64,000 nt of DNA from assembly GCA_000182565.2 (NCBI GenBank), contig KQ257454.1. The stretch is one strand, 5' to 3'. A program made the position numbers and the translations under genes. The notes below the pieces were generated by a model. That model did no database searches. It was given only the letters and a program-made list of their open reading frames with translations, and was not told where the DNA came from. Positions 7,954-34,259 of this stretch are shown here, piece by piece. This stretch comes from Spizellomyces punctatus DAOM BR117 (lineage: Eukaryota). Each line of letters opens with the position of its first letter. Positions within the stretch are counted from its first letter, which is position 1.

Positions 7954-9675
7954 TTAAATCTTTGCGGCCGCCACGGCTGGAAAACCAGCTCCTACTTTCT
8001 CCTCTATAGTGTTCCTCACTCCTTCTAGCCCAAGTTCCTTCTTTCCTCCGTCAGTCGAGATGTCTACGCAGCGTTTTGGCAGTCCTTCCAATTCCACTAG
8101 CTGACGTGGGGCAATATCTGCATAACTAACTGCCTTAAACCCTCTCTGTAATGAAGTATTCGGTACATTCTCATTTATCGCCTTCAGCACAGCCTCAGGG
8201 AATTTGCCGGGGCTTGCAGTGGATAAGCAGATGGTATAGGCAGTAGCGGATCCTCCGTTCTGAATGAAATTCTCCGCAGCCACAACTCCAACCGCCGTGT
8301 GAGGGTCCAGTACATAAGCCGGGCATCCCGAATCTGCGCCGGCATGTGAAGGGGTGGGCTCATAAGGCAGGCTGAACTGGTGGTGATAATATCGTTGTAT
8401 GGCGTCCGTAGTCTGTGCGTCAGACGTGCAAAATGACGAGAAAACCTCCTTTGCACGGGCGAGTACATCTTCCGGAACGCTGAAACCACCCTTCGCTTTT
8501 AAGTCGGACATCCATTGAGCGATAGTGGCACTGGCGACTTGCGCCTTTTCTTCCGTCTCAGCGTCCGCTCCTGTATGTCGACCATCGCCTCGGGAAAGGT
8601 ACCATATGAGTCGCTCAAAGTTCGAGCTCACTAAAATGTCCATAGCAGGAGACAGAGTTTGTCGTACTTCTTCATCCCCAGAGCCGGCCTTCTTCTTCTC
8701 GTATCTTCCGGTCTGGAAGAATCGATGTAGGATGTCGTTCTCATTAGTAGCAACAATAAGTCTTTCAATCGGAAGACCCATTCGGACGGCATAATACCCT
8801 GCCAGAATATCGCCAAAATTTCCAGTGGGCACACTGTATTGAACTTTGGTCAACGCTGCATAACTTGTTGCACCGGAAGGCGCACCAATGCGCTTTAACA
8901 GTGTGAAGTACGAGTAGAAGTAGTAGGTGGTTTGAGCAAGGATACGTGCCCAGTTGATCGAGTTGATGGCAGCAAGGTGGAATCGTCGCCGAAATGGTTC
9001 GTCTCCGAAGAGTGTCTTTACAATATCCTGACAATCGTCAAAGGTACCTTCCACAGCCACGTTGTGGACATTTTCATCGAGAACACTGGTCATCTGCTGC
9101 TCTTGCACAGGCGAGATACGACCTTTGGGGTGAAGAATGAAGACATTTACATTCTTCTTCCCTCGCAGCCCATAGATGGCAGCACCACCGGTGTCTCCAC
9201 TGGTGGCCCCCAACACAGTGATGCCATATTGCTCAACACTTCCTCTGTTCCTTCTGGCTAGAAAGTACTCGAACAGATTCCCGAGAACCTGCAATGCCAC
9301 ATCCTTGAAGGCAAATGTAGGCCCACGGAAGAGCTCCAACACATAGAGATTATCGAAGTTGTGATTGCCTAGTTCTGGCCGCACGTTAGGCAACTTTGTC
9401 AATGGAGTGACTTCCGGGGTAGAAAAGGTGGCGAATGAGCGAGTCAATATATCCTCCAGATCCTTGTCGGGTATTTCCTGCTCTGCAATGAATTTGCGAA
9501 AGATCTTAGCTGCCAGCTTTGGAAAGGGCAGGTCTGCCCACGAGAGGATCTCAGAGAGTGGCACTGTAGGAACATGGTGTGGAATGTAAAGTCCTCCGTC
9601 GGTCGCCAGACCTTCAAAGACCGCCTCCTCAAAAGAGAGGTTCGTTGACTTCCCTCTCGTTGAACGGTAACGCAT
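7954..9675 (-). CDS. THR4: Threonine synthase (intronless)
   Basis: 'MRYRSTRG', 'GLATDGGLYIP', PLP-lysine motif 'GPTFAFKDVALQ', 'GATSGDTG', 'NSINWARILAQ', 'VPTGNFGDILAG', 'DPHTAVG'. Confidence 0.97.
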   Translation of the reverse strand: MRYRSTRGKSTNLSFEEAVFEGLATDGGLYIPHHVPTVPLSEILSWADLPFPKLAAKIFRKFIAEQEIPDKDLEDILTRSFATFSTPEVTPLTKLPNVRPELGNHNFDNLYVLELFRGPTFAFKDVALQVLGNLFEYFLARRNRGSVEQYGITVLGATSGDTGGAAIYGLRGKKNVNVFILHPKGRISPVQEQQMTSVLDENVHNVAVEGTFDDCQDIVKTLFGDEPFRRRFHLAAINSINWARILAQTTYYFYSYFTLLKRIGAPSGATSYAALTKVQYSVPTGNFGDILAGYYAVRMGLPIERLIVATNENDILHRFFQTGRYEKKKAGSGDEEVRQTLSPAMDILVSSNFERLIWYLSRGDGRHTGADAETEEKAQVASATIAQWMSDLKAKGGFSVPEDVLARAKEVFSSFCTSDAQTTDAIQRYYHHQFSLPYEPTPSHAGADSGCPAYVLDPHTAVGVVAAENFIQNGGSATAYTICLSTASPGKFPEAVLKAINENVPNTSLQRGFKAVSYADIAPRQLVELEGLPKRCVDISTDGGKKELGLEGVRNTIEEKVGAGFPAVAAAKI

Positions 9676-9824
9676 TGCAATCTAGATTTTTGTGGGATGG
9701 AACACGAGAAAACCTTCCCCACCGCAAGCTACTGGAGTGTCTCAAAGATCTGGCCAGATATGGTTTCAGATGGTTTAGATGACTCCAACCAAATATTCAC
9801 ATTTCATATTATGTAAGCGTTTAC

Positions 9825-24620: not shown

Positions 24621-24934
24621 AATATGCGATATTGGTGTTCAGCTGTTGGCGATATTTGTATGTGATCCCATGCAAGCTTGCATCCCTCAGTTTAATCGTT
24701 CTGATCAGAGTTTATTCCGATAGGATTACATAATGACATTTCATAGCGACATTACATTCATGGATTTAAGAGGCGAAACCTGTAAATAACACAACGCACA
24801 TATGACTACGAAGACATGGTAAAATCAGGTGCACTAGTCATCGACATCTTTGTGTAGCCAGAGTCATCTTGCTTGTGACAACTACTTCCAAACATAGCAA
24901 TTCGCCATTTGTATTTCTTCCTTCAATAATAAGC

Positions 24935-25120
24935 TTGGCGTCACCCAGAGATAGTGCAATACTGGGGACACCGGTGCCAGCGTCTAGGGCAAGCCCATCA
25001 ACAGCCAGCGAGTTTCAAAAATAAGTTTGATAACAATTGTCCACAATGTGAACAGATTCAGTTATCAGACTGAATAGAACAGATACTACACTTGATCTTA
25101 GCCAAAAGGCCTGAGAGGAT
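24935..25120 (-). ncRNA. U2: U2 spliceosomal snRNA
   Basis: Minus strand reads ATCCTCTCAGGCCTTTTGGCTAAGATCAAGTGTAGTATCTGTTCT (U2 5' end with branch-site recognition sequence GTAGTA), Sm site TATTTTTG, 3' stem-loop with ATTGCAC loop; ~186 nt. Confidence 0.97.
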
Positions 25121-25154
25121 TAAAGAAAACAGGAGGGGGGACGGGGAACGTCGC

Positions 25155-25163
25155 CTTTTTATA
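25155..25163 (-). promoter_or_regulatory. TATA box of the U2 gene
   Basis: TATAAAAAG on the minus strand about 35 nt upstream of the U2 5' end. Confidence 0.7.
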
Positions 25164-28100
25164 GACGAGGGAGAACTGCGCTGTGGCGCAGGTTGAAAAA
25201 CGAAAAAAATGAAAAATTACGGAAAAAACCGGGTGACGTGTCCCATTCATTTCCCCTTCCAATTCCGTGATCAAGGGGACGCGCATGTGGACAATTGAAC
25301 GCGACGAGATTGTCCTCCTTGAAATACGCGTTTACCGCGGAGGGTAGAACTCAAACAGGAACCAGGGATTCTATATTAACCATTCTCAAAGCACAAGTAT
25401 GCAATACAAGTAGATTCGCGGTATTATAACAAGGTTTCCGCCGAACCTGCCCACAATCCATCCCTATCGTTCACCTACTTTCAGCACGCAATAAAGAAAA
25501 ATCATCTTAACAGACTCGTACTTATGAGACAAAGTCGGCCAATCCAACGCTACCTCGTACCTTCACTGAAGTGTGCTGGAACGCAAACACCGCCTTGATC
25601 GGCGCGAACCTCTACAAATTTACGACGTAACATCACAGGTACGAATCACGTACCTCTAGGGGCCTCCTCCCTGCACTTATATAACGACGCGATTAAACGG
25701 CCCCCGCCCACGCCGGGTTTGCTGTCGACACCTTTAAACTCTATTCGATCAGTAAACCACCATATCAGTCCGTTGTCTTACTTTAATGCCCGACTTTTGA
25801 TATCCTTCCATTTCAACAGTCGCATTTGCATCGTGATACCTTGCTTGAGGTTAGTTAACGTAAATATTAGAAATTACTCACCATTGAGCATGCGCGGAAT
25901 TGTCCTACTTCAACTTTCTCGCGCACCGGATATCCTGATCATATCAATAGTGCGAGACTTCAAAAGATTTGCAACAGCTTACTTTGAAAAACATTGCTCC
26001 TCCAACTTTTCCGTCTAGATGTCGAAGAAATACCTACACCTCGTTGATCAGTAACACGTACAGATGAGGTTTTAGCACTTGCGTGTGTGGGCGACATGTC
26101 CTTTTACCAAAATGACCGAATCCATGCATGTTGTGTTCCACGCCACTGCTCCAATTTGCGTCGCAATGTCAAAGAGGAGTCTACACATCGTCGTATCAGC
26201 AACACCAAAAGCCGAAAGTTTGACACTCACTTGTCCGACATATCTCGCCGTGTTCTCTTCCAACACAAAATCTGAAAACATACGAATAAGTAACATGCTA
26301 CAAGGGGGGAAAAGAGTATCAAGCCTGCAGTTCACAACACAAAAACTTAATAATTCTTAATAGCGTAGATCACTCTGGTTGGTCCTAAAGAAATAATCTG
26401 TCAGACACGCAAGTGTATGACGATGTGATCCTTAACGAATAGTCCAGCTTTGGCGGGTACACCACTCCTGAAAACCAGCACACATCAACAGACAAAAAAA
26501 AGCACAGACGGAAATACCAACGACAAATGGTTAAAAGTTACGTTTCTCATTTGCCCTAGGACGGAAATGTCAATCAAAACCCTTGTCATTTCACTAATCA
26601 TGCATGAAATGATACGAATGTGCTCTGCATCCCACAAGACGGTCTGCGTGGACGTCGGTAGACATGGAAATGAGCACCGAGCTATATATGGAACGATTTG
26701 ATAAGTTTCAAAGTGAAAAGCGAGGACTATGCATCTCACTGATACTACGGCGCTCCGGCGCGAGATCTAATAGCGCAGTGCATCTGGATAATTTGAAAAG
26801 TTAGCTTTAGCTTCTACTACCGGTGTTCGGTAATGACGCTAGTAGAGTTACGATTCTCTACTAAAACTCCCTCAGTTAGACCGAGAAGTGACCGATTAGA
26901 TTAACAGGGCTCATTGCACCATCACCAGCACTTCACTGGAATGCTTCTCAATGTGATGCATCACCCTAAAAGAAGGGAAAAGAAACCTCAACCCGTCCAA
27001 GAGGCATGCAAGGACCCTCAACTTTCCCACCTCTTTTCTGCATCCCCCATAGTTACTTCCGACGAATTTTGAAGGTCTCCACAGAGATGATCCAAGTGCA
27101 CAACGGCTGCAAATGGTAAAGCTTTATCAGCGTGACGTTTTATTATTTGCTTGTAACGTGTCAATCAATCCCAAAGGTGGTATAATATACTCCCTGATAT
27201 TCTTCCTCTCTAACGTGGGCTAATCACCGCCTAAAGTAGAAAAATGAAATCACCTCGACCGGTCCCCCCAAGAAAGCAGATGACCTATTGTACCACGCGC
27301 CCACCGTTTTCGACGGTTCACACTAGTTTCAATGACAACTGTCGAGACAAGCTGTCCTAGTTAACCTAGTTCAGCGCAAGAGTATGACCGCGGTCATTAG
27401 ATATTCGCACTAAGGTAAACATTCAAAGACTCATGTCATAGGCTGCCGATAGCACCCCCTTTACGTGTGTTGTAACACACAAACTTCTAAATTCCAACGC
27501 AGTTATTAAGGCTTTGCATGAAAGGAACTTTAACTTGCTGATAATATGTTGGAGGAATCACTACGACTGTTTTGCACGAAGTGCGCGACAGTACGGCACA
27601 ATATTGTCCTCAGATAGCCTTCGTTCCAATCTTCACAATCGCCAAACAGTTAATGTTCATGCAGTTAATGATCGTCGACTTATCTTCAGCGAAAAGCGGA
27701 CGGTGTCTTCAAGCATACATTTCCAAGATATAAAGTATAATGATGGTCTCTTCTTTAACGGCAATGCGTGTTCGAAACTTATTCCGGGATCAATTATGGG
27801 TCAAAACTCATTGTGAAAGTACAGTTGCGTTCTGACACGCGCATTTGTACGTGATATGTTCGTGCAATATCTTGAAGGATAAAGGTGTGAAGAATGCACA
27901 TCGAATGACGCATTTTTACTTCCTGCACCAAGTTTCCACAGATGATCGGATTTTAAGTATTGACGGTTGAGAGTTCATTCAATGTCACTTTCTTAAAGGA
28001 TGTTCGCGGCGAAGATGAACAAGACAAGCATGCAAGTATTGACTTTACCACCTAGCGGCTCTACTTGATTGGGGTCCTTAGGTGATTTCCTCCAATCCTG

Positions 28101-28499
28101 CGATCTCGGCAAATTAACGATTTCGCAAACAAGACACCACTCCCAACGGCAAGAACTTGCTGCGCCAAAGTGCCCGCAATGATCTATGCAAAGACGGGAT
28201 AAGATGGATGTCGGATGTTACTTTGTCCACGTTATCCACATCCCGCTGTATGCACGACATCGGGATATATTCTGCTGGGAGAATATCTTCCAGAGATCCA
28301 AGAATATGATGTTCTGGCTGCGCAATTCTTGCATGCACAGGCGAGACCAAAGTTCGGAAGCGTCCTGAAGGGTTCAGAAGCGTACTAATGTTCAAGAACA
28401 TCTTACTTCCATCCTTCACAAGAGTGATGTATCACGACCCAAGCTGATTTCGGTTTTTCGAACTAAGGATAAGGGTCCTCTAACAGTTTAACGACGTTT

Positions 28500-30455
28500 T
28501 AGATGGAAACGGGGTTCTCAGATTCAGACATCACCCAAGGAAGCAAGGTTCTCTAGATGGCTGCGGGACAAGACGTGTCACGGTCGTAAGAACATAGAAG
28601 AGCCTTACTTGAAGCATCGTAATCATCTTTCGTACCGACGTTCTGACGGTATCGGCGGATAGAAACTGAGCTCGAGAGCTCAGACACCATCCGAGGGAAA
28701 GGTTTCTATACACATGCGGACCAGGACGTGTCACAGCGTACGAATGTGTAAGAAGCTTACTTGAATATCAGATGCAACCTTCCGAGTAACATGCTAACGA
28801 TATCGGCGGACGGAATCCGAGCTCGAGAGCTCAGACATCATCCGAAGGAACGATGTAGTCTGTAGACGTGGGACAAGACTTGTCACGGTCGTTGTAAAGT
28901 ATTACTACGTTACATTAATGCACCATAGTCATTCCTCGTAATCCAGCAGCAAATCCGGTGTCGGCAGATGGTGACTGAGCTCGAGGGCTCAGACATCTAC
29001 CCAAGACGGAAGTATCATATTTTGCCGCAATCATCTGCACACCGACTGGAGACAACACTTCAAACGGGCGTCTGACGGCAGAACGTTCCTTCAATCCTTC
29101 ATAATCTATAAGCCGATCTCTCATTTCGAATTGACGGAAGTCCTACGCGTTATCGTGATGAGCTCGACGGATGGGAACCGAGTTTAAGCTCAGACGTCAT
29201 CCAAAAGAGCAATGCTATGCTGGGTAATTTCTCTATACACATGGAAGGCCAGACGTACCAGAGGCGTACAAATGCGTAAGCAAATTACATTGACGGTTTG
29301 TAGCATGAACGTTCTTGTCTGCAGTCGGCGGATGGAAACCGAGCTTGCAAGCTCAGACATCACCCGGAGAGCGCAACGGTCTACATGAATGGATACAAGG
29401 GAAGACTTGTCACGATCGTACGAATATTTAGGAACGTTACTTTGATTCATTAGGTCGATGCCCTGAGATGTTCGTAAAATCTCGACGGGTGGAAACTGAG
29501 CTCGAGAGCCTTAGACATCACCCGGAGATGGCGAAGGTCTACATGGATACGAGCAAGACTAATTACTGTCGTACGGATGTCAGAACATTACTTGTATGGT
29601 CGATGTCCTGAGATGTTCGTAAAATCTCGACGGGTGGAAACTGAGCCCGAGAGCCTTAGACATCATCCGGAGATGGCGAAGGTCTACATGGATACGAGCA
29701 AGACTAATTACTGTCGTACGGATGTCAGAACATTACTTGTATGGTCGATGTCCTGAGATGTTCGTAAAACCTCGACGGGTGGAAACCGAGCCCGAGAGCC
29801 TTAGACATCACCCGGAGATGGCGAAGGTCTACATGGATACGAGGCAAGACGGATTATGGTCGTACGGGATGTCACAACGTTACTTTGATCCATCATAATC
29901 CACGAGTCCTGGATTTGCGGCTTGAGGACGACGTACGGCGATGTTCTCACGATATGGGCGGAAGGAACTGAGCCCGAGAGCTCAGATATCACCCGGAAAG
30001 GACAATGCCCATACGGACGTTGCGTAAAACTTGTTATGGTCGTTACGGATATGTAATAACATAACTGTTCGGTTCGTAGGCCTTGCTGCGCTTCCACATC
30101 CAGGTTCAAAATAGAAGCCTTGTGACTTCGGATGACGGAAGTACTTGAGCGACCCGGACTAGTCGGCTGCGCGTCCAACTGTGGCCAGGACTTTAGACAC
30201 AGCGACGAGTGTATAAGAAGAAGTGCAAAGACTTACATAAAACTTGTAGCCAAGGGCGGTCAGAATCAGTGCGCTTCGCGTGTCGCATGTCGCTACCCAG
30301 TGCAGTTCAGGTTGTTAATGACAACGTCTTCTCCCCGGCCTGGCAAGATATTCGTCGTGCGGGAGACGCTCCAAGTTCCACGCATACCGCACAGATCCTA
30401 CAGGACAAGTTGGTAGAAAACACAACTCAACATCAGGCGTACCTTTGAGGAAGAG
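28500..30455 (-). ncRNA. Putative spliced multi-hairpin long non-coding RNA / small-RNA precursor (3' end unknown)
   Basis: TATA at 30481-30488 (-); leader introns 30398-30442, 30340-30387 and 30179-30236; repeated introns in the array; spliced exons give no continuous ORF. Confidence 0.6.
28501..30066 (-). repeat. Degenerate tandem array of 10 units (period 145-203 bp), each with a conserved hairpin core; 8 units also carry a GT..AG intron
   Basis: Plus-strand core CGG(A/G)TGGAAAC(T/C)GAGCTCGAGAGCTCAGACATCA(T/C)CCG starting near 28501, 28656, 28807, 28965, 29168, 29329, 29486, 29631, 29776 and 29959; units 7-9 are almost identical with a 145-bp period. Confidence 0.95.
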
Positions 30456-30480
30456 GCAATGGGGGAAAAGTCGAGCCCCC

Positions 30481-30542
30481 TTTTATAAACGCGAGCGGAG
30501 ATGACGAGGGGGGCGCAACGCGTTCAATTCGGGCCAATCAGA
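30481..30542 (-). promoter_or_regulatory. Candidate Pol II promoter (TATA plus CCAAT) upstream of the hairpin array
   Basis: TTATAAAAGGGGG on the minus strand ending at 30488, GGCCAATCAG near 30532-30541, ACGCGT near 30518, followed by a pyrimidine-rich start and a GTACGC donor at 30442. Confidence 0.6.
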
Positions 30543-31290
30543 ATTGAGTGGCGTCCCCGTGAGGACTTTCCAGAAATGATTGAGTAAGCGCGCTCCAGCC
30601 ACTGCCGGCCAGGGACGAAGGGACTTGTTGTATTGCTGTCCAGCCCTGACCATGCATCGTCATGTCATGGGTGGGTCGTTCAAAACTTGCCGACGTAGTA
30701 GTCTTGTACCCAATAATTCTTGCAGTACTAAATGCATGTCATGATCCCGTTGCTGCTAGTGCCATGATCGTTGTGCTGTAGTGCTTCCAACTATAGATCA
30801 AATTGCGTATTAAAATACAAGCACCCATGGTAAAACCAGATAGATACCAGTTACGAAAAACGAAAGAATGCTGAGAGCGCCAATTGCGTAGAATGAGATT
30901 CCATCTGCTGAGCAAATCAATTGACTGTGCCATGCTCGTTGCTATGGGCGGTATCTACACAACCTTATGGCCCCAACCCCATCGTTGAAAGTTCAAATCC
31001 AAGGGGCAAAGTGCGCTAAAGGTTGGATTTGGCTTTCCTTCCAGCTGCCGTTCCTTCCTCGACGGTTCGCCATCCCTCATCAAAAAAAAAATTGAAGAAA
31101 GGACCTCTTTGCTTTGGGTATTCCCATCGTCTAAAAACCACTACGGCCACGTTCCCCTTAAAAAAATCCAATATATCGCTAGTTCTGGAACGACCGTCTT
31201 TTGATTCAATCCCTCATACACACAGCCGAACACCGCCTTCCATTCTTGTATACTAGTTTTTTCGTTTTCTACTATTTCTTTATATCTACA

Positions 31291-31933
31291 ATGACGAACG
31301 CTGCAACTTTCAACGGAGAGAGGACCTGGGAGCAGGTTGCTGTTGGTATGTGGGTTCGGTGGCGTCAACGAACATATGGCAGATCAACTAACATTTAGAA
31401 CAATTGTCTGTCTGCTGGTAGATGTAACTGGCTTTGTCTACTGTCCCCCGGGCTGGGATGAACAGAGACTGAGGGCGGGCCCTGATGCAGAGGCTATCGG
31501 GTAGGTCAAGTGCCTGAGCTGGATATGCTGCCGTGCCGCACGCTGACTTTGATTTATTCAGTAAAATTGCAATGGATACGTACACCGATATCAGCTACAT
31601 CAAAGAGAAGAACGCCATTCAGATCTCTGGTGAAACCCACGATGATGTGTACAAAGCGTACGTATGATGCTCTTTGATTCAAATGTGTTGCGACTTTTCT
31701 CTGATTCCAAGCCTAGTCAGAATCAGCTCAACACTCTCTTCTTCCCTGTGATTGTAAAGTCCAAACGTCAATGGGCCCGTCCTGATCGCCCAGGCGTCTG
31801 GGGACAACGCCGTGATTCCACCACTCCTCGTCCTGGTTCCAACCCTAATGGCCTGAGGAAGATGAAATCTGAGTCTGCCCTTCAGGCTCGTTCGAGTGCA
31901 CAGGCGTATGGTGGATACGGTCAGTGGCGCTGA
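31291..31933 (+). CDS. Small (~150 aa) protein with a KH-fold-like segment, 4 exons
   Basis: Spliced product MTNAATFNGERTWEQVAVDVTGFVYCPPGWDEQRLRAGLMQRLSGSKIAMDTYTDISYIKEKNAIQISGETHDDVYKAQNQLNTLFFPVIVKSKRQWARPDRPG...; the pattern of the middle exon resembles the C-terminal half of a KH domain, but there is no GxxG; the exon-2 donor is ambiguous. Confidence 0.6.
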
Positions 31934-32201
31934 GATACATAGCAGCGGGGCTTCAACATGGTTGGAATTAAGGATGGCACCATTGCGCGGCTACTTGATT
32001 ATGATCAAACGTTTGCCGATAGCACATGGTTCATCGTGTAGCAAATTTAGTCTCTAATTATTATAGTGTGCACTTTACGTGCGTGTTGAAACCAAAAGAC
32101 TTGTCACAGTATAATTTGCTGCAAATGTGCTGAATAGGCTTTGCAAGCAACCAACAATACAATACATACTTTCTACTGTAACTTCCTTTTTCAAACTAAA
32201 A

Positions 32202-33539
32202 CTAGATAGTCTTCTTATCCAAAACCGTCTTCACTCTGCTTCTGTAATCATCCCAGTTATGATAGCAACCAGTCAATCTCCTGTGTCCAGTAAAAGCTGC
32301 TCGTCCATGCAATACCCGCCAGTTGTCCACCATGACAGCCCGACCGGGTCTTAATTGAGTCCACAATTCATTCCGCTTATCTCTCAATAATTTAATCCAT
32401 TCCTTCAAGGCTGCATAAAAGTCTCGCACTTCTGATGCAGAAAGATGATCCAATGTGGAACGATCATCATTGTTGAATCGGATTTGGTAAAGTTCTCTGG
32501 TGGTTGGGTCATGGTTGAGTATAGGTCGCCCGTATGTAGGTTCGATCAAGGTACTTTTGTCGCCGGCTGAGTGGGAGGAAATGCGTGTTCGGGAGAGAAT
32601 ATCATATGCCCATGGGTGCAGTGTTTGAAGTTGATGTGCAACGTGGAAACCATCCACGTAAAGTGATTCACCGCCTGTTCCGCGGTGCTCCAGAAGGTGG
32701 AAGAGTTGTAGTCCTATTGGATCCGTAAAGTACGTCGTGTCCGTGTGGGCAGGAAGACCGAGAGTCGTGTATGCAGTGTCGCCGTGTTCGAGATTGGCAG
32801 TAAAGTCCCAAAATCCTCCATAATGCGTTTCGCGAATGAATGAGATCCGCCGACCCAGCTGTTCTGTAGCTTCCGGGGTGGCCGGCACTCCATCTACGAA
32901 TCCTATTCCGTACACATCAATGTGTTCCAGCCACTTTGCCAATCCTTCTTCGTTTGCCATTACATCCTTATACTGGACAATCGGGAGCGATTCTGCAATA
33001 CTGGCATCCCACAGTTGTTTATCCCGCAGCAACTTCTTCTCTGCCAGTTTGGGATTGTAAGAATGCTGTCTCAGCCATGCCAAATCCATTACGCTTTCAT
33101 GTCCATCATCCTCCCAGACGAACTTGATGGTCTTGCCATCAGGCGACACGGCCATGCTAGATGGCTTGATGTTCAAGGGAATTGAGGCGGTATCTATCAA
33201 GCGCTGCTTCGTGATGGCATGAAAACATGAAGGGCAACGACAGTGGTCACGAAGCCAGATTCCGTTGAATGACGTTGTTGCATAATCCCCGAACCGGATA
33301 GTGACTCTGTTATCCGGCTCTACCCATGCAGTTGGCGTGTTGTCTAGATCATCGTCCATGCGTTGCGGGGCGGCGGTGGAAAGGGATGCGGCAGCGGAGC
33401 GAATTGGCAGCATAGGTGGCAGACATGATGGAAGGCTCGACGGGATGCGATTGACGGCAGGTAATAGAGGTCGCAAGATGCGACTTGACAGCGTCCGCGT
33501 TCGGTTTGCCAACAGCGTCGAGACGAGCCTGGTTGACAT
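32202..33539 (-). CDS. TMLHE: Trimethyllysine dioxygenase (carnitine biosynthesis), mitochondrial, intronless
   Basis: 'WLRDHCRCPSC..ITKQR', 'DTAYTTLGLPAHTDTTYFTDPIGLQLFH', 'QIRFNNDDR', 'DNWRVLHGR'; N-terminal presequence. Confidence 0.92.
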   Translation of the reverse strand: MSTRLVSTLLANRTRTLSSRILRPLLPAVNRIPSSLPSCLPPMLPIRSAAASLSTAAPQRMDDDLDNTPTAWVEPDNRVTIRFGDYATTSFNGIWLRDHCRCPSCFHAITKQRLIDTASIPLNIKPSSMAVSPDGKTIKFVWEDDGHESVMDLAWLRQHSYNPKLAEKKLLRDKQLWDASIAESLPIVQYKDVMANEEGLAKWLEHIDVYGIGFVDGVPATPEATEQLGRRISFIRETHYGGFWDFTANLEHGDTAYTTLGLPAHTDTTYFTDPIGLQLFHLLEHRGTGGESLYVDGFHVAHQLQTLHPWAYDILSRTRISSHSAGDKSTLIEPTYGRPILNHDPTTRELYQIRFNNDDRSTLDHLSASEVRDFYAALKEWIKLLRDKRNELWTQLRPGRAVMVDNWRVLHGRAAFTGHRRLTGCYHNWDDYRSRVKTVLDKKTI

Positions 33540-34259
33540 TTGACAGTGACTTTTGCTAATCAATAGTGAGCGTACAGAAGAAAACAAGGAATAGGTAAAG
33601 TTCAGAGTGCAAATGAAGAAGATGGGAAGACCAAGATGAATGCCACAAACTATGAAACCAACATGCGACAGAACGAGGACGGGAAAGATGTTCGGGAACC
33701 AGCTTTTATGGAAGCCTGATTTGTCTATATATAGTTACATGGCATTTGAATTCAGCCAATCACAGGCGTGGAATCTCTAAATGCAGTGGCACAGTCATCA
33801 CGGAAGACAATCCCGCCAAGTCGGGAGGCAATTGGACATCTGACGTTGAACTTGGAGTGCCGAGACTTTTATCCTGCAAGGTGTCAAGGCCAGCTGATGC
33901 GGATGGTGTGTGAATGAATGTTTGAGGATATGTCGGTTGGAATGTTGGTGCATATCGCATGGTGCATATCGCATAGTCATGGAATAGCCCGCGCATATCA
34001 AAACCATAATTAAATAAACGGTTAGATGGTAACTGAAATTGCCGACCTGGCGGATTTCCAACGCATTTGTTTAACCGCACGGTTCCAACGGGATTATCCG
34101 GATAAGCCACGTTGTCATCACTGGCGCTGAGGTATGAAAAAGAAGCTTCCATGCGACATCGCCGTCGTTATCTCATCCGCCTGTGATCTCAGCGTTGTTT
34201 CTCTGACTTCCTTTTTGTTTGCACGAGCGCTTGCCTGAGTCACTACCAGAACCCCAAAC

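Follow-up and report, generated by a model that had tools for sequence, protein, structure and literature searches.

We analyzed a 64,000-nucleotide stretch of DNA from Spizellomyces punctatus DAOM BR117 (NCBI GenBank assembly GCA_000182565.2, contig KQ257454.1), which we call the window and number from its first letter. On the minus strand of the window, ten tandem units of 145 to 201 nucleotides (nt) span positions 28345 to 30010, and each unit contains a conserved core. The cores lie within 28494 to 29998. A prediction made earlier from the sequence (the original prediction) had described this region as an array of ten units, each a hairpin exon followed by an intron, transcribed from a TATA promoter into a spliced non-coding RNA. 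We found that the locus encodes a non-coding RNA built from repeats, a new and unclassified RNA of an early-diverging fungus. Its dominant RNA, however, is not a chain of hairpin exons.

The units are anchored by a GATGTCT motif, whose first G is at 29990, 29809, 29664, 29519, 29361, 29198, 28997, 28839, 28688 and 28532 in units 1 to 10, with a spacing of 145 to 201 nt from anchor to anchor. Alignment of the ten cores (alignment A1) gave a core length of 45 to 47 nt per unit and the consensus CTCCGGGTGATGTCTGAGCTCTCGAGCTCAGTTTCCATCCGCCGAGA. We built a covariance model, R1, from the ten cores and searched it over all 64 kb on both strands with filters off. R1 recovered all ten cores at 45 to 66 bits. 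The next matches, at 16 bits, were the palindromic inner stems in plus-strand reading, and the best match beyond the array reached 13.2 bits (E 0.21). Therefore, the repeat is real and, within the window, restricted to this locus. The anchor positions and the R1 search bear out the ten minus-strand units first proposed. Tandem Repeats Finder reported only the three young 145-nt copies at 29453 to 29885, which are 95% alike; it misses the older units because their sequence outside the core has diverged too far.

The array is longer than the ten units. A degenerate module with a decayed core and a tail without GT lies upstream of unit 1, at approximately 30005 to 30160 on the minus strand (repeats D11 and D12; row u0_tail of alignment A2). 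Another lies downstream of unit 10, at approximately 28177 to 28300 on the same strand (A2 row u11_tail), with a weak R1 match at 28270 to 28295 (8.6 bits, E 4.5). Thus, the predicted number of units held, and the limits placed around them did not. These edge modules are the most decayed of the array.

The element retained in the ten central modules is 38 to 47 nt in size. It consists of a 6-bp outer stem (CGGRUG/CAYCCG), a 4-by-4 internal loop (AUGU/UUUC), a 6- to 7-bp inner stem (CUGAGC/GCUCAG) and a variable apical loop. Counted over a 6-pair outer stem and a 7-pair inner stem on either side of the 4-by-4 loop, standard pairs fill 88.3% of the 128 pair cells. When the 3' partners were slid by 1 to 3 columns as a control, this value was 23 to 48%. 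We then folded pieces of 61 to 66 nt, with z-scores taken relative to shuffles. The two-stem hairpin was the minimum-energy fold in units 1, 4, 5, 6, 7, 8 and 9, and six units had a z-score of at most -1.75. The original prediction had placed the hairpin in every unit, which is true of these seven and fails for units 2, 3 and 10.

All ten cores are on the minus strand. Core 1 (29952 to 29998; R1 score, 51.4 bits) adopts the hairpin as its minimum-energy fold (z -1.97). In core 2 (29770 to 29817; 64.0 bits) the inner stem is weakened by a G-to-A change and a 1-nt insertion, and the minimum-energy structure is a different one (z -0.57). Core 3 (29625 to 29672; 63.2 bits) carries these core 2 changes plus an A.C mismatch in the outer stem, and it also folds differently (z -0.02). 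Core 4 (29480 to 29527; 66.4 bits) has a 5-bp lower extension, ATCTC/GAGAT, and the extended hairpin is its minimum-energy fold (z -1.13). Core 5 (29323 to 29369; 64.0 bits; z -1.75) forms the hairpin. Core 6 (29162 to 29206; 50.4 bits; z -2.63) has a 2-nt deletion in the apical region that leaves the stem intact. Core 7 (28959 to 29005; 57.0 bits; z -2.34) pairs its outer stem in a shifted register, GGUAGAUG/CAUCUGCC. Cores 8 (28801 to 28847; 65.0 bits) and 9 (28650 to 28696; 63.9 bits) have z-scores of -2.51 and -3.24. Core 10 (28494 to 28540; 45.3 bits) keeps an intact outer stem in which a C-G pair has become U-A; its inner stem is lost, and its minimum-energy fold contains no hairpin (z +1.31).

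We compared identity among eight older units, leaving out units 3 and 4 as near-copies of unit 2. Mean pairwise identity was 0.71 in the core; the 98 upstream columns had 0.44 and the 50 downstream columns 0.33. Homology fades after the core, and there is no hypervariable segment there. Conservation in the two strands of the internal loop (0.92 and 0.88) matches that of the stems (0.78 to 0.85). The apical loop varies by unit and reads CUCG, UGCA, CUUAAA or CCUCGA. Judged from the aligned cores, a conserved internal loop with a variable apical loop fits the pattern that a read-out of sequence plus shape would leave. In the same eight units, 17 of 29 changed stem cells are still paired. Single random changes would be expected to leave about a quarter to a third of them paired (binomial p 0.004 for a value of 0.33); differences in the flanks comprise 749 transitions versus 762 transversions. 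The pairing count is mild support only, because the changed cells have common ancestry and cannot be treated as independent. All six differences from the window in the X3 and X7 contigs (sequencing runs introduced below) that fall within the array lie outside the cores, which by our own arithmetic has a chance probability of about 1 in 6.

Parts of the window are contained in 20 of 24 listed public sequencing runs, 5 of the 20 being recorded as RNA. Of these 20 runs (X1 to X20), contigs from four served as evidence, namely, X3, X7 and X12, which are RNA libraries, and X2, which is of unknown kind; together they gave 15 aligned pieces from 11 contigs. Gaps in their cover (such as 28501 to 28780 in X7 and 29503 to 29792 in X3) were not taken as absence of RNA. 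A single X3 contig of 1681 nt covers the transcribed body, 28403 to 30431 on the minus strand, in the segments 28403 to 29502, 29793 to 30178 and 30237 to 30431. Its 5' end at 30431 is about 50 nt downstream of the predicted TATA box, which is present at 30481 to 30488 on the minus strand (TTATAAAA within GTTTATAAAAGG). Additional RNA-library contigs cover 28182 to 28500 (X7) and 28100 to 28182 (X3), so the RNA may continue past unit 10. The contig over 28100 to 28182 extends further left.

A 58-nt leader intron, GTAAGT..CACAG, at 30179 to 30236 on the minus strand, is spliced. Its joint, 30178/30237, reads CT..AC on the plus strand and was found in X3 and X12, which come from two studies. It was not found in X2, whose contig runs unspliced through the leader intron and past the promoter, as DNA would. 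Because the splice is GT..AG on the minus strand, the locus gives rise to a minus-strand RNA that is processed by the spliceosome. Together with the RNA 5' end, this agrees with the proposed minus-strand transcript of RNA polymerase II (Pol II) type behind the TATA box. Three leader introns had been predicted, and only this one was confirmed. The candidate at 30340 to 30387 is covered by an RNA contig with no skip, and the candidate at 30398 to 30442 is unskipped over the part that the same contig covers, 30398 to 30431.

Segments of the form GTAA..YAG, 53 to 60 nt long, are present in 8 of 10 units, just as had been claimed. Seven of the eight are retained in RNA-library contigs. On the minus strand, the tails of unit 1 (29829 to 29883, GTAACG..TGTAG, 55 nt) and unit 7 (28860 to 28913, 54 nt) are unskipped in X3 and X7, that of unit 2 (29684 to 29736, 53 nt) in X12, and that of unit 4 (29381 to 29440, 60 nt) in X3, X7 and X12. 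X3 also covers the retained tails of unit 8 (28706 to 28760, GTAAGC..TATAG, 55 nt) and unit 9 (28553 to 28608, 56 nt). The tail of unit 5 (29233 to 29288, 56 nt) is retained as well and contains a different donor, used in X12. In unit 3 (29539 to 29591, 53 nt), cover is limited to 29576 to 29591. Thus, RNA contigs read straight through the full length of seven of the eight segments, the eighth is covered in part, and no aligned piece among the 15 skips any of them. The shorter tail of unit 10 (28365 to 28406, GTAAGA..TTCAG, 42 nt) is also retained, in an unbroken X7 contig at 28182 to 28500. Two of the unskipped contigs show by their own splices that they derive from RNA, namely, the X3 contig with the leader splice and the X12 contig with an internal splice. 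The X3 contig combines the 58-nt leader splice with 1.1 kb of unbroken array.

The lone internal splice removes a 96-nt alternative intron (GTACGT..TCGAG, 29163 to 29258, minus strand) that contains core 6. Its donor is the GTACGT at 29258, and its acceptor AG, at 29163, closes ..CCGTCGAG. The joint, 29162/29259, occurs in one X12 contig, at a depth of 2.6 and with 96 letters on its shorter side. Splicing on the minus strand was therefore found at two joints, 30178/30237 and 29162/29259, and at none of the unit introns that had been listed. The predicted splicing of hairpin exons to one another is not supported, and the only internal splice seen uses other sites and takes a hairpin out. An intron finder based on open reading frames (ORFs) proved noisy on the window, giving 96 candidates, mostly false, and we drew no splice-site consensus from it.

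Two contig features concern the young repeats. The X3 contig skips 29503 to 29792, exactly 290 nt, or two 145-nt repeats, which reflects either assembly collapse or a difference in copy number. An X12 contig placed on unit 3 has, at three positions, the letters that characterize unit 2. Strains may vary in how many young repeats they have or in how these are ordered, or assemblies may collapse them. Contig ends also coincide across runs. X7 and X3 share an end at 28182, two bases past the YAG of the degenerate last module, and X7 and X12 share one at 30087, adjoining GCAG. These shared ends may mark additional splice junctions, or they may be variants.

Alignment A2 matches the spliced leader intron to the unit tails, of which that of unit 8 is its closest relative. 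The two have in common CTTCTTA.ACA.TCGT..CGCTGTG and GTCCTGG. This homology indicates duplication of an exon-intron module and backs the origin that the original prediction had suggested. On the strength of the alignments, a fair account of the gene would be that at least 12 modules arose from one exon-intron unit by duplication.

The array showed no coding capacity. We found no stop-to-stop frame of at least 150 amino acids (aa) at 25200 to 32200, about 7 kb around the array. In the transcript model, from which the leader intron was removed, ORFs that start with ATG reach at most 95 aa. None of four ORFs matched Pfam, and for a 106-aa ORF of the array a search of the protein collection found no homolog (two candidates, none scored). 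Removal of the claimed introns would leave exons of 92, 92, 98, 92, 99 and 97 nt, and only one of the six lengths is a multiple of three. The transcript is therefore non-coding, as had been supposed, in that it shows no such frame, no Pfam match and no homolog.

Searches for known RNA classes agreed with the original prediction that the array belongs to no described non-coding RNA family. An Rfam 15 scan of the window at gathering thresholds found only a U2 small nuclear RNA (snRNA) gene at 24929 to 25122. At E values up to 10, the region 28200 to 30700 gave only SNORD112, on the plus strand and outside the cores, with 17.8 bits versus a gathering score of 58 (E 5), a chance match. The region 25100 to 28400 had no match at E values up to 1. 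A tRNA scan of 27500 to 31000 found no genes. Core complementarity to the neighboring U2 snRNA was no better than that of shuffled sequence, and a telomerase-template search of the transcript found no telomere-type permutation beyond a single hexamer.

Individual motifs were also considered. A box C/D small nucleolar RNA (snoRNA) has a C box near its 5' end, a D box (CUGA) near its 3' end, a terminal stem and a guide of 10 to 21 nt upstream of D or D'. In the cores, RUGAUGU abuts CUGA with no guide between them and no terminal stem, and we rejected this class. A CUGAC further downstream occurs only in units 2 and 3 and partly in unit 1, and its flank does not pair beside the C-like box. The consensus core of the hammerhead ribozyme is CUGANGA - stem II - GAAA. 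The array core has RUGAUGU - hairpin - UUUC on the minus strand, and its plus-strand reading is GAAAC - hairpin - ACAUCA; the hammerhead motif order is absent, there is no Rfam match, and the hammerhead and other self-cleaving ribozymes were rejected. The stem-loop of histone mRNAs has a 6-bp stem, a U-rich 4-nt loop and an A-rich 5' flank. It was rejected as well, given no Rfam match at E values up to 10, a 7-bp stem, loops such as CUCG and UGCA, and a GAUGU flank; its binding protein SLBP is reported in chytrids in one study (10.64898/2026.10.14.759114). Readings as H/ACA RNA, kink-turn, selenocysteine insertion sequence, Helitron end or U12 intron were dropped by eye, their defining motifs being absent or not common to the units.

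We propose that the locus is a Pol II gene in its own right in a Spizellomyces-type chytrid and that it produces a minus-strand non-coding RNA of about 2 to 2.5 kb. The gene probably arose as one exon-plus-intron module was duplicated in tandem, and it now has at least 12 modules. The intron of the first module is still spliced, and the later intron-derived tails are kept in the RNA that accumulates. The hairpins may be repeated docking sites for one putative RNA-binding protein that reads sequence and shape. With 7 to 10 sites on each molecule, the RNA could be a multivalent platform on which this protein is titrated or assembled. We tentatively favor this reading, a stable and mostly unspliced RNA whose hairpins are putative protein-binding sites or a sponge, although we give it less than even odds. 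The survival of the unit 6 stem through a 2-nt deletion counts in its favor.

A number of results weigh against it. The original prediction had named a lack of significant covariation among aligned homologs as a ground for refutation, and among the ten paralogs covariation did not reach significance. Both sides had changed in three pairs, which 62 of 500 shuffles reached, and the covariation score was reached by 91 of 500 shuffles. The three youngest copies (units 2 to 4) carry the weakest inner stem, and this, with the other folds of units 2, 3 and 10, implies that single copies are not strongly protected. One form of the RNA in X12 lacks hairpin 6 through splicing. No orthologous locus was found, the metagenome pattern scan having given two single matches, on the GC-rich contigs L001 and L002, with no array and both due to chance. 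The motif is absent elsewhere in the 64 kb, so nothing marks the hairpin as a general cis-element. Contigs drop rare forms, and minor splicing at relic sites or rare processed RNAs may therefore occur. The edge modules have lost the core, as in arrays that are kept alike solely by unequal crossing-over.

The last observation leads to a functionless, decaying tandem duplication, in which unequal crossing-over amplified a transcribed exon-intron module, the central copies are younger or homogenized, and the RNA is a by-product. We consider this somewhat unlikely, although a real contender. The degenerate edges, the lack of significant covariation and the lack of relatives in the metagenome scan and protein search would all be expected of it. 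So would a recent 145-nt expansion to three copies that are 95% alike, with their weakened inner stems and a copy number that may differ or collapse in X3. However, homogenization of whole units does not explain why core identity is 0.71 when the flanks have 0.33 to 0.44, nor why so many changed stem cells still pair. A dedicated TATA promoter, a spliced leader and RNA in the libraries of two studies also speak against a mere by-product. A polycistronic small-RNA precursor, similar to those of microRNAs and suggested in the original prediction, is unlikely. Hairpins with a lower extension of 4 to 6 pairs would be excised, through Dicer or a Dicer-independent route suited to short hairpins, and the conserved 5' arm would yield a small RNA. 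Ten homologous hairpins in one Pol II transcript suit such a role, and in the inner stem and internal loop conservation is slightly higher on the 5' arm (0.85 to 0.92) than on the opposite arm (0.84 to 0.88). A microRNA-like precursor has a stem of about 20 pairs or more. Extra lower pairs in units 4, 5, 6 and 8 bring the helix there to about 20 to 22 pairs, nonstandard pairs included. However, the helix common to the units has just 13 standard pairs and the 4-by-4 loop, which is short for Dicer, and internal-loop bases as conserved as the stems are unusual for a dicing substrate. Long unprocessed contigs (1681 and 700 nt) assemble in the RNA libraries, as would be expected of a long and stable RNA more than of a precursor that is diced quickly.

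The cores may instead act in cis on splicing or retention, blocking the relic sites or forming introns that contain a hairpin, so that the RNA stays unspliced and perhaps nuclear. We think this improbable. Its appeal lies in the position of the hairpin, 10 to 20 nt past a relic acceptor and about 45 nt ahead of a relic donor, and in the fate of the introns, since seven of the eight relic introns are retained and the homologous leader intron, whose neighboring core has decayed, is spliced. The internal splice uses a GTACGT donor and, as its acceptor, the CGAG at the end of core 6, and by eye GTACG donors are followed by an AG soon after the next core at about six junctions. However, such a splice was seen a single time, in one shallow contig, and the AG after the core is missing in about half of the units. 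This idea also accounts for the retention and not for the purpose of the RNA. Very improbable is a polycistronic micropeptide RNA of the tal/pri type, in which the ATG within the conserved GATGTCTGAGC would open the short ORF MSELSSSVSIRR... in each unit. An ATG, or ATG GTG, does occupy the equivalent place in 9 of 10 cores, and by eye the next 12 codons are similar in units 5, 7, 8 and 9. However, the frame is shifted in units 2 to 4 (+1 nt) and in unit 6 (-2 nt), unit 1 has ATA, and a peptide would not require the arms to be complementary. With frame-shifting indels in 4 of 10 cores, one exon length in six divisible by three, and no homologs or domains, we rejected a protein-coding gene or micropeptide polycistron. 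The probability left over after these five readings is reserved for explanations that we have not thought of.

In its layout, the array resembles the Xist A-repeat, the roX stem-loops, the NORAD repeat units and hsr-omega, each of which likewise places many short structured elements between poorly conserved linkers in one Pol II transcript. Such repeat-built long non-coding RNAs usually work as multivalent protein platforms. The array differs from them in that it has no sequence relation to them, has a chytrid host, and is made of exon-intron-derived modules that keep relic splice signals. Fungal snoRNA host genes and polycistronic snoRNA clusters (UHG-like) are also non-coding multimodule Pol II transcripts with short introns, and the RUGAUGU and CUGA of the core resemble C and D boxes. 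However, the array tails, at 53 to 60 nt, are too short for a snoRNA, and there is no CUGA at a 3' end with a terminal stem. Polycistronic precursors of microRNAs or microRNA-like RNAs share the several homologous hairpins per primary transcript; the array is set apart from them by its short helix and its conserved internal loop. The Fanzor omegaRNA of the Spu-1 elements of S. punctatus is described as a 75-nt scaffold at the right inverted repeat of a transposon with a guide of 14 to 15 nt (PMC10432273). It is akin to the array in its organism group and in having a conserved, structured RNA part followed by more variable sequence. The array differs, since the window has no such inverted-repeat pair and no Fanzor ORF. 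In literature searches at the level of titles and abstracts, no paper described a long non-coding RNA of this organism, and nothing on the locus came up. A full-text search for an 11-letter core motif in four spellings matched 48 papers, and the titles of the 20 listed concern unrelated subjects.

The array is possibly, though doubtfully, a natural multihairpin cassette with a dedicated function in an early-diverging fungus, and the family would then have come from repeated duplication of an exon-intron module. Its ten hairpins might dock a protein and so control how much of an RNA-binding protein is available during the zoospore-to-sporangium cycle, or they might form a polycistronic cluster of short-hairpin small RNAs, the first in Chytridiomycota. 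Synthetic hairpin arrays are used to tether proteins to RNA and provide an analogy for the docking form. If the hairpins are binding sites or sources of small RNA, the locus would be a tractable example of a regulatory RNA built by repetition from an ordinary exon-intron module, in a culturable organism for which public RNA data sets exist. If it is merely a decaying repeat, it is a caution against taking relic splice signals for introns.

Neighboring genes lie on the same strand as the array. Upstream of the array promoter, the next gene is a 510-aa open frame at 32202 to 33734 (minus strand), which by eye looks like a dioxygenase of the TauD/gamma-butyrobetaine-hydroxylase type. The U2 snRNA gene at 24929 to 25122 (minus strand), 3.2 kb downstream of the array, is full length, matching positions 1 to 192 of the Rfam model RF00004 with 154.6 bits. 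Further away, an intron-less threonine synthase gene at 7954 to 9681 (minus strand) encodes a protein with 98% identity to that of Spizellomyces sp. 'palustris' and 77% identity to that of Gaertneriomyces semiglobifer. The first of these matches assigns the window to Spizellomycetales, which agrees with the chytrid host that had been supposed.

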